Source of the DNA: a virus
Taxonomy: Duplodnaviria > Heunggongvirae > Uroviricota > Caudoviricetes
Reading direction: 5' to 3' (one strand)
IMG/VR virus record: IMGVR_UViG_2721755643_000006
Coordinates: 1-49,995 of that record
Length of the DNA stretch: 49,995 bases
Shown here: positions 22,864 to 45,097 of the stretch, piece after piece
Layout of the letters: every line of letters begins with the position of its first letter
Numbering within the stretch: position 1 is the first letter of the stretch
Notes under the pieces: model-generated
Seen by the model: the letters and a program-made list of their open reading frames with translations, nothing else
What the model was told of the DNA's origin: nothing
Database searches by the model: none
Translations under genes and position numbers: made by a program

Positions 22864-23344
22864 CGAGTAAATCCGGTAATTTATCCCCCGCACGCGCGCA
22901 CTGATTCGCTCCCTTAGCAATAAGGATTTTCAGATGATCAATATGACGCGGCGTTAAATCCGGGAACTGTCGTTGCATGGACAAAGGAATGGAGTCAAGC
23001 GTACTGGATAAAGCCATCGCCAGCTTACTAAGGGCAAAAATACAAAATCCGCTATCAATAAGATTTCCTTTTGACACCTGATTTTTTAACTGCTGTGCGA
23101 CAGCCTGTTCTGCGGTCAGTTCCCATCTCGCAATGAGTAGTTTCTCTTCATAATCCTCTTCCGGATCACCATCAGGCACATCGTTTTTACTTCTTCTCAG
23201 ATACGATATGTAAAAATCACGCCAGGCATCCAGATCCAGTTGTCCTCGCTTGTTCGAAACCGGGGCACCCGGCAGTTTCTGTAATCTGCGAAGCTGGCGA
23301 TCGGTCAGACTCAAATGCCTGGCAACTTCAGTCTGAGTAGCCAC
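22835..23344 (-). CDS. Nu1: Terminase small subunit Nu1
   Basis: N-terminal winged-HTH (EVARHLSLTDRQLRRL) and C-terminal similarity to lambda Nu1 (GFCIFALSKLA...LDSIPLSMQRQFPDL..RHIDHLK); GTG start with GAGGTG 5 nt upstream; overlaps A start. Confidence 0.8.
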   Translation of the reverse strand: MATQTEVARHLSLTDRQLRRLQKLPGAPVSNKRGQLDLDAWRDFYISYLRRSKNDVPDGDPEEDYEEKLLIARWELTAEQAVAQQLKNQVSKGNLIDSGFCIFALSKLAMALSSTLDSIPLSMQRQFPDLTPRHIDHLKILIAKGANQCARAGDKLPDLLDEYIRTTTE

Positions 23345-23414
23345 TGTTCACCTCGCCAAAAAATCTCCCCTCATGCGTTTTAAACATGCATCTTGCGAAC
23401 AACTTTATGAAACG

Positions 23415-23575
23415 CGGCATATATGTCCGGTTTGAGTGTTCAATTTTTGCGCATGTCCGGTTCGCAGAAAGCACATTTCTATATTTTTCAAATGGTTAAC
23501 CTTCAGAGAAACCGGACATGGTTTCCGAAAAATTTTCATAAATAGTGAAATTCTGCGCCGCTCCCGCCCCGTGGC
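23415..23575 (-). other. cos region: cosN-like end plus cosB-like segment with three CCGGACAT-type repeats
   Basis: Minus-strand sequence GGGGCGGGAGCGG-CGCAGAATTT-CACTATTTATGAAAATTTTT closely parallels the lambda left end (GGGCGGCGACCT-CGCGGGTTTT-CGCTATTTATGAAAATTTTCC), ~215 bp upstream of Nu1; repeats containing CCGGACAT at ~23426, ~23455, ~23511. Confidence 0.55.
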
Positions 23576-23705
23576 AGGCCACCCCACCGGGAGGACCCGT
23601 CAGCCTGACAGCCATGACGAACGTCTGATACAGCGCCCTGCATGAATGACATCGGGATAATCCAGAAAGGAATAGCATCGTACCCACAAGAATCAGTGTA
23701 AGTGT

Positions 23706-23882
23706 CCTGTTTCTTCCACCCCCGCACAGGACTGGCGAGCATGAGGGACAAACCCGCGAACCATAAACGCGGTAAAAACCCGGTGTGCATCGTTTTTGAT
23801 TATTCCCGCACACTCGCGCAGAAGGAGTTCCCCGTCGGGCTACGGTCATGGTTAATGCGGGAATACAGCGACGATACAGCGC
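23706..23882. repeat. 177-bp direct repeat, copy 1 (between cos and the IS)
   Basis: Near-identical to 26408-26584 by direct alignment, only a handful of mismatches. Confidence 0.85.
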
Positions 23883-24069
23883 ATGATGTGTCAGGCCTGA
23901 ATACCTTTATCCGTTAAAAGGGATATCAGTTAAGTTATCCCGTGTAGGGTATAAGCCATTATCAAAGCCACTCAGTAGCGAATGGCTTTTGTAATGGGCT
24001 ATTTAATTAGGCTGTGTCCCTTAATCATCTGAGCTATAGTAACTGTCTGTTTACACAACATATTGAACT

Positions 24070-24519
24070 ATGGCTCGCTACGACCTTCCCGATGAGGCAT
24101 GGACCATCATCAAGCCCCTGTTACCTCCTGAACCCGCCACACCACGGGCCGGACGCCCATGGGCTGAGCACCGTAAAATCATCAATGGCATGTTCTGGGT
24201 GTTATGTTCCGGTGCACCATGGCGCGATTTACCCGAACGATATGGGTCATGGAAAACTGTTTATAACCGCTTTAACCGATGGTCAAAGTCAGGCGTGATT
24301 AATATTATTTTCAACAGGTTGCTTTCGCTACTTGATGCAAACGGCTTTATTGACTGGTCTGCCACCGCGCTGGATGGCAGTAATATCCGGGCGCTGAAAT
24401 GTGCCGCCGGTGCTCAAAAAAACATCCCGATATCGACGGAGATAATGGGCTGGGTCGCTCTCGCGGCGGTTTTGGCACCAAAATCCATCTGGCAACAGAC
24501 GGAAGTGGCCTCCCGTTAA
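24070..24519 (+). CDS. IS transposase OrfA (DUF4096-type N-terminal domain)
   Basis: MARYDLPDEAWTIIKPLLPP...RPWAEHRKIINGMFWVLCSGAPWRDLPERYGSWKTVYNRFNRWSKSGV is the characteristic N-terminal domain of IS5-family transposases. Confidence 0.8.
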   Translation: MARYDLPDEAWTIIKPLLPPEPATPRAGRPWAEHRKIINGMFWVLCSGAPWRDLPERYGSWKTVYNRFNRWSKSGVINIIFNRLLSLLDANGFIDWSATALDGSNIRALKCAAGAQKNIPISTEIMGWVALAAVLAPKSIWQQTEVASR

Positions 24520-24914
24520 ATATCGTGCTAAGCCCCGGACAAGCTCATGAAAGCCAGTTCGCGCAACGACTTCTGGACGGGATTGGCGTTCAGCGTCAGA
24601 ACGGCAGCATGAAACGCCGTGGACATGCGGTACTGGCTGATAAAGCGTATTCAGGGCGCGCATTGCGCAACGAGCTGAAAAATAACGGTATAAAGGCAGT
24701 AATCCCCCGAAAGTCAAATGAGAAAATGGCATCGGATGGACGTGCACAGCTTGATCGTGATGCGTACCGCAATCGTAATGTCGTTGAACGGTGCTTTGGG
24801 CGGCTGAAAGAATATCGCCGCATCGCCACGCGTTACGACAAAACGGCGAGAAATTACCTGGCGATGGTGAAACTGGGCTGCATCCGACTCTTTTATCAAC
24901 GCTTACGTAATTAA
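24399..24914 (+). CDS. IS transposase OrfB (DDE domain), expressed by -1 frameshift fusion
   Basis: DDE-type C-terminal domain ORF overlapping orfA; fusion predicted at the A7 slippery run. Confidence 0.75.
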   Translation: MCRRCSKKHPDIDGDNGLGRSRGGFGTKIHLATDGSGLPLNIVLSPGQAHESQFAQRLLDGIGVQRQNGSMKRRGHAVLADKAYSGRALRNELKNNGIKAVIPRKSNEKMASDGRAQLDRDAYRNRNVVERCFGRLKEYRRIATRYDKTARNYLAMVKLGCIRLFYQRLRN

Positions 24915-25366
24915 GGGACACAGCCTAGTGATGCTGCGTATTCGATTAGATATAACTTAGGTGCCAGCCAGATTTTTAACCATGTCATATTGGCTACTAT
25001 AGAAATAATAAAACTTAACCATAGAATAAAAACTGCTACTAATGGTAAGACAAAAGCACTTAACCTACCGTCACTTTCCCAAATCATAGTCGGTTTGTAT
25101 TTAGGCTGTCCATTATCACATGAGCGTCCGTCATTATCGAACTTACCAATTTCAACTTTTTTGCACTGTTTCTTCATAAACCAAATAACCAGCGGGATTG
25201 TTGAAATGGCTATTAATGTTTTAATCAGGCTATCAACTATATTCCATACCAGCAACTGATGAACAACATCCGGAATCTGAGCCTGACTGAATGCAATGGC
25301 GGAATCAATTCCATCGCTGGCATTGTTCAATAAATCAACAAGAATTTTCTTTGCTTCTTCTTGCAT
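24911..25366 (-). CDS. Small membrane protein with two predicted TM helices; 3' end altered by the IS insertion
   Basis: 151-aa ORF with hydrophobic stretches LIKTLIAISTIPLVIWFM and LSAFVLPLVAVFILWLSFIISIVANM; AGGA 8 nt upstream of ATG; last codons and stop lie inside the IS right inverted repeat; AT-rich. Confidence 0.6.
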   Translation of the reverse strand: MQEEAKKILVDLLNNASDGIDSAIAFSQAQIPDVVHQLLVWNIVDSLIKTLIAISTIPLVIWFMKKQCKKVEIGKFDNDGRSCDNGQPKYKPTMIWESDGRLSAFVLPLVAVFILWLSFIISIVANMTWLKIWLAPKLYLIEYAASLGCVP

Positions 25367-25489
25367 GTATATATCCTGTAAGTTGTAAGCCTGTTCGAAA
25401 AAATAAACAACTACGAGAGACAGAAAAAAATATCTCAGGCTCTCTTTCTATAAGCTTTTAGTTGAGGATGTTCTGCAAAACAAAACTGG

Positions 25490-26350
25490 TTAGTTATGTA
25501 ACTGCTTCTGGAATACAACAGCCGACGTGCTACAACGTAAAATTCGTTTGATTGTGGCAGTTGAGGAAACAGACTTGCATTTCTCAATATCATCAATGAT
25601 GACCACATCCGGTACAGGCATGATGCGGGTATGCAATGTTTTTGCACTAATAACATCACAGCCATTCAGTGGACGAATATCTGCATCTTCAGGCACTACC
25701 AGAAGCACACGTTTCTCCGTTGCAGAAAAGCCAGCAGCAAGAGTTCGCGACAATAAAGTCATTCCACTACGTGGCTTCATACAAATTTCAGAAATATGAT
25801 TTTTTTCGTCCAAATGATGCTGGCCATCATTTTTATCATCACTCAACAACTCTGCTGTTAATACAATCCCTGCTGTCTCAGATTTCCAGGAAATGCTGAT
25901 ATCCTGATCATCTGCATCAACATCATATTTCATCGAGTAAGGACTAAAGCAACGTCCAACGAACGCATCGTTTACCAGTACACGCCCACCCTGTCTGACC
26001 TGAAAGTCAACGCGCCCTGAAAGCTGATTTACTGTTACAAGCAATGCCTTTTTTCTTTTTGTTTTATTACTCATTGCCACAAACTGTTCAGCCATCTCTC
26101 TTGTCACACTACCAGAAACTCTTTCTTGAATTTTCACAGTAAATTTTCTGGATGTAGTAGCATCGACATTAAAAAATCTGGATGTCATTAGGCAGTTATT
26201 AACAATTGGCATCAGCTCACTTACAATTGTAACAAATTCCCGGTAAAGCTCATTTTGCTTTTCAGCACACAGTTTTCCGCAATCGGCCAGCTTAAGCTCA
26301 AGAGCAATTAATCGTTCCATTATTGAATTAATTTTTTGCAACTCTTTCAT
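25490..26350 (-). CDS. Hypothetical 286-aa soluble protein, first gene of cos-proximal cassette
   Basis: ATG at 26348-26350 preceded by AGGAGG with 5-nt spacing; N-terminal coiled-coil-like region; no family recognised; the longer ORF-track version (to 26650) reads through the 177-bp repeat and is an artefact. Confidence 0.65.
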   Translation of the reverse strand: MKELQKINSIMERLIALELKLADCGKLCAEKQNELYREFVTIVSELMPIVNNCLMTSRFFNVDATTSRKFTVKIQERVSGSVTREMAEQFVAMSNKTKRKKALLVTVNQLSGRVDFQVRQGGRVLVNDAFVGRCFSPYSMKYDVDADDQDISISWKSETAGIVLTAELLSDDKNDGQHHLDEKNHISEICMKPRSGMTLLSRTLAAGFSATEKRVLLVVPEDADIRPLNGCDVISAKTLHTRIMPVPDVVIIDDIEKCKSVSSTATIKRILRCSTSAVVFQKQLHN

Positions 26351-26407
26351 CAAAACCTCCTGACAAAGATACCGTGCGACCACGGTCGCACGCTCCTGAA
26401 TACATGC

Positions 26408-26584
26408 CCTGTTTCTTCCACCCTCGCACAGGACTAGCGAGCATGAGGGACAAACCCGCGAATCATTAGCGCGGTAAAAACCCGGTGTGCATCGTTTTTG
26501 ATTATTCCCGCACACTCGCGCAGAAGGAGTTCCCCGTCGGGCTACGGTCATAGTTAATGCGGAAATACGGCGACGATGCAGCGC
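26408..26584. repeat. 177-bp direct repeat, copy 2 (upstream of the cassette)
   Basis: Near-identical to 23706-23882; flanked by two copies of CGACCACG[G/A]TCGCAC (26380-26394, 26599-26613). Confidence 0.85.
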
Positions 26585-29734: not shown

Positions 29735-29809
<75 letters not shown>

Positions 29810-29812
29810 ATA

Positions 29813-29888
<76 letters not shown>

Positions 29889-29890
29889 GC

Positions 29891-29967
29891 TGGCCCACCA
29901 CCGAGGACTCGAACCTCGCACCGTCAACTTAGAAGGTTGATGCTCTATCCGGATGAGCTAGTGGTGG
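29891..29967 (-). tRNA. tRNA-Arg (anticodon TCT)
   Basis: 77-nt cloverleaf: anticodon stem TCAAC/GTTGA, loop CTTCTAA, T-arm CGAGG-TTCGAGT-CCTCG, CCA end. Confidence 0.75.
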
Positions 29968-29968
29968 T

Positions 29969-30044
29969 TGGTGGCCCTTGCTGGACTTGAACCAGCGACC
30001 TGGCGATTATGAGTCGCTCGCTCTCACCACTGAGCTAAAGGGCC
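29969..30044 (-). tRNA. tRNA with CAT anticodon, ileX/ileZ-like (Ile2 or Met)
   Basis: GGCCCTTTAGCTCAGTGGT.AGAGC...GACTCATAATCGC...GGTCGCTGGTTCAAGTCCAGCA.GGGCCACCA is nearly identical to E. coli tRNA-Ile2 as recalled. Confidence 0.8.
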
Positions 30045-32276: not shown

Positions 32277-32352
32277 AGGATGATCCTTTTTCTATGTGAA
32301 TCATCACCAACCTGAGACCAATCAGGGTGGTGAGCTGGCGGCGTTGGTCTTA

Positions 32353-32384
32353 CCGGGAAAAAGGAACCGGCGCGCCGGAGCGCC
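32353..32384 (-). terminator. Candidate tR'-like terminator downstream of Q
   Basis: Minus-strand GC hairpin (GGCGC-loop-GCGCC within CCGGCGCGCCGG) followed by TTCCTTTTTCC. Confidence 0.3.
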
Positions 32385-32510
32385 ACCGCCAACCCACCAT
32401 AATGCGAGTGTGGCTATGCAAACGACAATAAAAAAGACGCGAGCGCGCCTATTGCCGCCTTTTTCATCCGGGAGACCAATCCCGACGCCAGATTTTGCTG
32501 ACGCGTGAGG

Positions 32511-34805: not shown

Positions 34806-34961
34806 TTACTCCTCAGGTTCGTAAGCTGTGAAGACAGCGACCTCCGTCTGGCCGGTTCGGATTCGTACCTCGCAGAGGTCTTCCCTCGTTACCAGTGCCG
34901 TCACTATGACGGTTAAACAGATGACGATCAGGGCGACTAACATCGCCTTTTGCTGCTTCAT
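34806..34961 (-). CDS. hok: Hok/Gef-family type I toxin
   Basis: MKQQKAMLVALIVICLTVIVTALVTREDLCEVRIRTGQTEVAVFTAYEPEE is nearly identical to E. coli HokD/RelF. Confidence 0.88.
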   Translation of the reverse strand: MKQQKAMLVALIVICLTVIVTALVTREDLCEVRIRTGQTEVAVFTAYEPEE

Positions 34962-35296
34962 AGCCTGCTTCTCCTTGCCTTCCGGCACGTAAGAGGCTAA
35001 CCTACATTTGTGAGACATAGATTGGGCCTCAGATTAATGTTAAGCGTCCTGCAAGACGCGTAATGTTAACTGGGGCTTTTCTCTGTCTGCCTTACAGTGG
35101 CATGCCCGAGGCAGACAGCCTCAAGCACCCGCAGCCATTCTACTTAACCTTTTAGCTGTTTCCAACATTTTATCTTTGCACCAAAATTCGCTCGCAACCT
35201 ATCGATAAATCTAGAATTTTTAAATTAATAGATTGCAATAACATGCGATGTTCTCTTTAACCAAAATCAGGTCACACAAAAACCATTCTACAATTT

Positions 35297-44616: not shown

Positions 44617-45097
44617 AAAGTGAATTTTGTGATGCGGTGAATGCGGCTCAGCGCACGCGGAACAGTTAAAAAGCGATTAGTTCCCACGTATCGGGTGGTT
44701 ATGGGTATCCCTGTATCCGGCGTTAATTGTTAACTGGTTAACGTCACCTGGAGGCACCAGGCACCGCATCAACAAAGTTCACTTCGGTGATGAAAGGAAA
44801 GAGAAAATGTTGAATGTAGCTATTGAAAACCAGAACGGGTGGAATTATAGTGCACCTGCACCTCATAAAACGGGTGCCGGGATTGGCCTCCTGTTAATCA
44901 CATTGGTGCCTGAACACGCGCCAAAAGCGTGTTTTTTGTTGCCTGCATTTCATCATTCAATGGCAGCTCAGGCGGGAGCTTCTCACGAAGCGCCGGGTTC
45001 CGATGTGACCGGTAAGGCCAATCCCGTCTGGGCTACCACCAATCGGATTGGCCTCTGCGGTGGTGGCAGTACTGCTTTCACATCGGAGGATGCCGTT

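Follow-up and report, generated by a model that had tools for sequence, protein, structure and literature searches.

What lies between 24008 and 24927 in this prophage, where exactly does the inserted DNA begin and end, can its two transposase frames give a single enzyme, and what has become of the gene in which it landed? The window we have analyzed is a stretch of 49,995 nt (IMG/VR virus record IMGVR_UViG_2721755643_000006). A first-pass annotation had described an IS5-family element at these positions, and related elements are indeed abundant, with 99-100% identity in 44 E. coli and 153 plasmid records. Sequence comparison leaves us almost certain that the element is an intact copy of ISSfl7, of the IS5 family (IS427-type), which occupies 916 bp, from 24010 to 24925 (+).

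Full-length matches to a 920-bp query were found by megablast in the 44 E. coli records, two of them at 100% and two at 99.9%. The 100% copies are those of FDAARGOS_943, which has the element in 36 places, 32 of them chromosomal. The 99.9% copies, which carry an ISSfl7 annotation, are those of RMDEC364 and VL46. All 153 plasmid matches are also full-length: 130 of them correspond to Shigella, mostly to large virulence (pINV) plasmids, with 99.3-99.5% identity. RefSeq calls the 99.9-100% copies 'IS5-like element ISSfl7 family transposase' and adds the remark 'programmed frameshift', the CDS equivalent to 24070-24914 being given as two joined pieces. The name ISSfl7 thus comes from the NCBI annotation of near-identical DNA, used as a proxy for the ISfinder reference, to which a member of the same IS species should by convention show at least 95% nucleotide identity. 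An identical element is labelled ISSfl1 ORF1/ORF2 in the S. flexneri 2a plasmid pCP301 (AF386526). ISSfl7 is a catalogued IS, frequent in Shigella and in enteroinvasive E. coli, and is also known as an insertion in the fimD gene of S. boydii (PMC4374849). No match to it was found among deposited phage genomes (50,697 records).

The window copy does not differ from ISSfl7 in any substantive way. It is 99.3-100% identical to the known copies over the full 920-bp query, with the same ends, the same two ORFs and the same run of seven A (A7), and only its insertion site is particular. A single base change, T instead of C at 24451, separates it from the other chromosomal copy in RMDEC364. Even the insertion is already known, as RefSeq has annotated the same one in E. 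coli RMDEC364.

The transposase is coded in two overlapping frames. The first, orfA (24070-24519, +), would give 149 amino acids if ended in frame 0. It contains the DUF4096 DNA-binding region (Pfam PF13340, E=1.5e-30) and an aspartate, D102, in an ALDGS motif. The orfB frame (24399-24914, +), -1 relative to orfA, codes for the DDE catalytic domain (Pfam PF01609 DDE_Tnp_1, E=1e-21) with D191 and E240, and LADKAY and VVERCF motifs were located for this part. After a -1 shift, the orfAB fusion coding region (24070-24914, +) corresponds to 281 amino acids, which score 321.5 bits (cutoff 110) against the NCBIfam model NF033580 (transpos_IS5_3). The match covers model positions 2-257 of 258 in a single stretch, therefore both frames together form one uninterrupted IS5-type transposase. 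The shift site falls between D102, on its 5' side, and both D191 and E240, on its 3' side, so that the DDE triad is complete in the fusion alone. The two transposase ORFs linked by an A7 run which had been noticed at first sight are thus real, the run being found at 24416-24422. A DDE_Tnp_1/IS5-type transposase and two 0/-1 overlapping ORFs with a slippery motif are features of the IS5 family. An antisense ORF of 197 amino acids (24328-24921, -) also runs through most of the IS. This ORF is not annotated in the copies of RefSeq and probably results from codon composition.

The size of the element, 916 bp with transposase frames only, is in line with the IS427 type of the IS5 family, about 0.8-1.0 kb without passenger genes. 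We have placed it in the IS427 group on the basis of shared features and the NF033580 match, and its structure follows the IS427-type pattern without departure. Elements of this group are about 830-870 bp long, their two ORFs overlap and show a conserved frameshift motif, and their direct repeats have 2 bp (PMC3281130). Their DDE triad is complete in the fusion only, and frameshifting has been proposed to limit the supply of transposase (PMC3281130). IS1248, ISPpa2 and ISPaes1 of Paracoccus are good examples: Like ISSfl7, they are small, with two ORFs and a frameshift motif, their inverted repeats have 13-21 bp, the direct repeat has 2 bp and the triad is found in the fusion (PMC3281130). ISSfl7 differs from them in being longer (916 versus 832-865 bp) and enterobacterial.

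Closer relatives can be aligned end to end with the window copy: ISEhe2 of Pantoea agglomerans (Erwinia herbicola) with 88% identity, and elements of Rahnella (84%) and Arsenophonus (78%), as well as an E. coli variant with 91%. The first three have 916 bp and the same 16-bp repeats as ISSfl7, and share with it the TA flanks, the A7C site and the ORF layout. Nevertheless, an identity of 78-88% makes them separate IS species by the ISfinder convention. The 91% relative is found in E. coli R32_14_1F (L009), beside ompC, and in 32 other E. coli records (90-95%). It is an annotated pseudogene, with A8 replacing A7C and an internal stop, and appears to occupy a fixed chromosomal site. Much shorter elements have the same 16-bp repeats and TA flanks. 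Many of them, with 265 bp, are found in Serratia aquatilis (NZ_CP173186.1), and others, still shorter (151-155 bp and 244 bp), in Symbiopectobacterium, Serratia aquatilis and Xenorhabdus. All of these look like non-autonomous MITE derivatives of the ISSfl7 lineage.

The left terminal inverted repeat (IRL), GGCTGTGTCCCTTAAT, lies at 24010-24025 (+) and the right one (IRR) at 24910-24925 (-), both detected by the repeat finder (pair I1). A TA is present at both junctions, as had been annotated, at 24008-24009 on the left and 24926-24927 on the right, and the element with its flanks reads TA-GGCTGTGTCCCTTAAT...ATTAAGGGACACAGCC-TA across 24008-24927. In fact, the reverse complement of 24910-24927 matches TAGGCTGTGTCCCTTAAT (24008-24025) perfectly, and the first-pass annotation had accordingly proposed perfect 18-bp inverted repeats. 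Their symmetry is indeed perfect, but their length must be corrected to a 16-bp repeat plus a 2-bp TA duplication. Eighteen bp read as a perfect repeat because TA is palindromic. Within the 50 kb of the window there are exactly two occurrences of the 16-mer GGCTGTGTCCCTTAAT, one at each end of the element and in opposite orientations, where 0.01 would be expected by chance. IRL is constant across five aligned elements, save one base in one decayed copy. The 16-bp ends, a feature expected in the IS5 family, coincide with the break of homology at the empty site and in four relatives. The repeats are therefore, as had been supposed, at the ends of the homologous unit, which stops there in Pantoea, Rahnella and Arsenophonus.

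The limits of the element can be seen at the empty site. A query of 1083 bp, in which both flanks were joined by one TA, was searched against E. coli genomes. In VL7S7 this reconstruction is present whole, with 100% identity and a single TA between the flanks. In FDAARGOS_943 the flanks are also parted by exactly one TA at the homologous site. RMDEC364 and VL46 contain the reconstruction in two pieces spanning 2001 bp, which corresponds to the same insertion as in the window. The occupied site exceeds the empty one by 918 bp, which corresponds to the 916-bp element plus 2 bp. As the empty site has one TA and the occupied site has one on each side, TA is a 2-bp target-site duplication, as usual in the IS5 family, and the element proper extends from 24010 to 24925. 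A partial match to the query is present in over 4,000 E. coli genomes. Most of these probably matched a 180-bp segment which is repeated in the window and will be discussed below.

In order to survey the target, the 16-mer was scanned in species-representative genomes, giving 120 loci, mostly in Enterobacterales. We compared 161 non-redundant ends from other genomes: TA lies next to 155 of them, and position -3 is C or T in 153. When the ends could be paired, TA was found on both sides in 31 elements or MITEs, and the next base was mostly A or G. Taken together, these positions define YTAR as the target consensus, the TA at its centre being duplicated, and the site in the window, TTAG (+) or CTAA (-), agrees with it. 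Viewed through occupied sites alone, such a high proportion of ends next to TA could also suggest that TA is part of the element, with 18-bp repeats and insertion without duplication. From sequence alone, an element which duplicates TA and one which carries one TA and inserts beside a TA look alike, and the few ends without TA in the survey are unpaired, so they do not decide the matter. However, the empty site already has one TA, and a difference of 918 bp, with a TA on either side, is what the duplication of a preferred TA target would leave. Furthermore, when IS427-group elements were captured in trap plasmids, their direct repeats measured 2 bp (PMC3281130). We consider it very improbable that TA belongs to the element, and keep the duplication of TA as our reading.

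How the two frames may give one protein depends on the A7 run. The slippery heptamer A_AAA_AAC (24417-24423, +), whose A residues lie inside this run, is in phase with orfA: The codons of the orfA frame at this point are GCT CAA AAA AAC, a canonical X_XXY_YYZ site for -1 ribosomal frameshifting. A7C is unchanged in three intact relatives with 78-88% identity, and the stretch GCCGGTGC-CAAAAAAACATCCCGATAT shows a single base difference among them, in Rahnella. No significant stimulatory RNA structure was found 3' of the heptamer, the fold of 24410-24520 having z=-0.88 versus shuffles, and no independent signal of a stimulator, be it a downstream structure or an upstream Shine-Dalgarno-like sequence, was obtained. 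This does not disqualify the site, because an IS cluster without known stimulator has A_AAA_AAC as its proven motif for -1 frameshifting (PMC4066793). The result is consistent with a low-efficiency, stimulator-less site. This cluster, A_AAA_AAC_1, is IS1, which is also cited in PMC3281130. The insA-insB' frameshift of IS1 uses the same type of heptamer and no established downstream stimulator (PMC4066793). The low-level fusion product of IS1 is the active transposase, a likeness which we propose for ISSfl7. IS1 is different in other respects, with an unrelated transposase family and target duplications of 8-9 bp. Frameshifting is listed as in use in the IS5 family, and both ribosomal and transcriptional slippage are documented for IS elements (PMC5009743). 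A programmed -1 frameshift in ISSfl7 may thus be proposed on good grounds: the motif, its conservation and the precedent in the family.

The two ORFs could also be what is left of a transposase gene that has decayed through an ordinary frameshift mutation, in which case the window copy would be a dead relic. Such decay does occur in this lineage, since the 91% E. coli relative beside ompC, with its A8 and internal stop, is a true pseudogene, and the absence of a stimulatory structure at the slippery site would fit it as well. Against this, the 0/-1 layout and A7C are kept in intact elements of four genera with 78-100% identity, the element is present in many copies, whose ends are intact and whose target duplications are fresh, and its insertion sites vary among sister strains. 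Moreover, a two-ORF arrangement is normal for the IS427 group (PMC3281130). A relic is, in our opinion, extremely improbable. A different case is a fusion made by transcriptional slippage, in which RNA polymerase adds an A in A7, rather than by ribosomal -1 frameshifting. The presence of a homopolymeric run and the lack of a downstream stimulator agree with it, while the exact phase of the run, as the A_AAA_AAC motif proven for ribosomes in a stimulator-less IS cluster (PMC4066793), argues for the ribosomal route. Both routes would give the same protein save one residue and are not mutually exclusive. Efficient transcriptional slippage usually requires runs of at least nine, which also counts against the polymerase. 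We regard slippage of the polymerase as unlikely and ribosomal frameshifting as the more probable route.

With ribosomal frameshifting, translation would start at 24070, and most ribosomes would stop at 24519 to give OrfA, with the DNA-binding domain and the first aspartate only. A minority would slip -1 on the heptamer and continue to give the 281-amino acid OrfAB with D102, D191 and E240. The same OrfAB might be obtained by an alternative route, from mRNA with an extra A due to polymerase slippage in A7. OrfAB would then bind the 16-bp terminal repeats and insert the element at YTAR sites, with the 2-bp TA duplication. We infer that the window copy may be active. No promoter-like site upstream of orfA was reported in a promoter scan of 23300-25600, with counts at chance level. 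At this locus, Rfam gave nothing save a chance-level microRNA match, either at the gathering threshold over the whole window or with permissive settings over 23350-24010.

The comparison with sister prophages gives an idea of the age of the insertion. Along 7.2 kb which include the insertion site, the VL7S7 prophage has 99.9-100% identity with the window and does not contain ISSfl7 there. The insertion is therefore recent and strain-specific. RMDEC364 shows one base difference from the window in 10 kb around the IS. There are small indels elsewhere, and the window does not have the ISCro1 insertion which RMDEC364 presents near 43 kb. ISCro1 belongs to the IS66 family and lies in the early region of the RMDEC364 prophage (L005 43064-45762). 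The VL7S7 prophage contains IS600 in the large terminase gene (L002 634-1790) and IS911 near the lysis genes. The different IS insertions found in prophages of sister strains suggest an ongoing IS expansion in this lineage. The counterpart in RMDEC364 of positions ~1-1100 of the window (window coordinates derived from RMDEC364, with an offset of ~32 bases) contains ipaHd, an ipaH-type gene for a type 3 secretion effector E3 ligase, which adjoins the tail-fibre end of the prophage. The presence of ipaHd beside the prophage points to a Shigella-like or enteroinvasive E. coli as the host. The prophage itself is lambdoid.

The element lies within a gene coding for a phage membrane protein with two hydrophobic segments, centred near residues 52-56 and 108-123. 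The interrupted gene is a chimeric allele coding for 151 amino acids (24911-25366, -), which belongs to phrog_3054 (E=6.5e-54), described as 'unknown function'. This was its only match, no Pfam or NCBIfam family being found for the protein. Many temperate phages have homologues, whose annotations are hypothetical or 'TM helix-containing', and nearly all of the 120 homologues listed have 149 amino acids. The insertion took place between codons 147 and 148 of the 149-codon gene, and the last four codons of the chimeric allele and its stop (24911-24925) are drawn from the right end of the IS. The native allele, WP_001542481.1, has 149 amino acids and ends in ...EYAASLIK. The ending reconstructed in the first-pass annotation for the gene before the insertion agrees residue for residue with this uninterrupted VL7S7 allele, and the current ending it had given, ...EYAASLGCVP, is the one found in the minus-strand ORF. 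I-K at the C-terminus has thus been swapped for G-C-V-P. Conservation in the family is highest in the tail, WLKIWLAPKLYLIEYAASL(I/V/M)K: All 25 aligned native sequences have an aliphatic residue next to last, and 22 of them end in lysine. This is a small change in a constrained place, and it is plausible that the protein may still work.

According to the annotation of the near-identical RMDEC364 region, from which we have taken the order of the late genes, the IS lies antisense in the late transcription unit of the prophage, between the lysis genes (holin, lysozyme and Rz-like) and the terminase genes. An imperfect hairpin (23951-24002, repeat pair I2, with 23-nt arms, 78% complementary) is found directly 3' of the native stop codon of the membrane-protein gene, and the IS now parts the gene from it. 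Inside the IS, a scan of 23300-25600 found one terminator-like hairpin on the minus strand, which is not above expectation. We find it unlikely, but conceivable, that the insertion alters a moron protein or damps the expression of late genes, as a snapshot of IS-driven prophage domestication.

The surroundings contain other repeats and small RNA genes. A direct repeat of 180 bp with 94.4% identity (23703-23882 and 26405-26584) brackets a 2.5-kb module which includes two hypothetical phage genes and the IS. Its first copy overlaps a small annotated ORF on the plus strand (23741-23917). We have considered whether this repeat might be a structured RNA, but there was no fold signal in either strand and no match in Rfam. 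Elsewhere in the window, Rfam detects two pairs of isrK and C4 antisense RNAs in opposite orientations (32323-32504, - and 44858-45043, +), a sok antitoxin RNA which adjoins hokD (34956-35130, -) and a cluster of four tRNA genes (29738-30044, -) downstream of the Q antiterminator gene.

In summary, the importance of this locus goes very little beyond its correct annotation. The empty and occupied sites in near-identical prophages provide a clean natural demonstration of the 16-bp ends and the TA duplication of the element, and the survey of 161 ends yields a YTAR target consensus. The insertion is also a strain-level marker, which separates closely related E. coli isolates of the enteroinvasive type. 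It has placed 0.9 kb of antisense DNA a short way upstream of cos and the terminase genes, and has replaced the aliphatic-lysine pair of the conserved motif. If it does affect the prophage, then, together with IS600 and ISCro1 in the sister strains, it would represent live domestication of a prophage in an emerging Shigella-like lineage.
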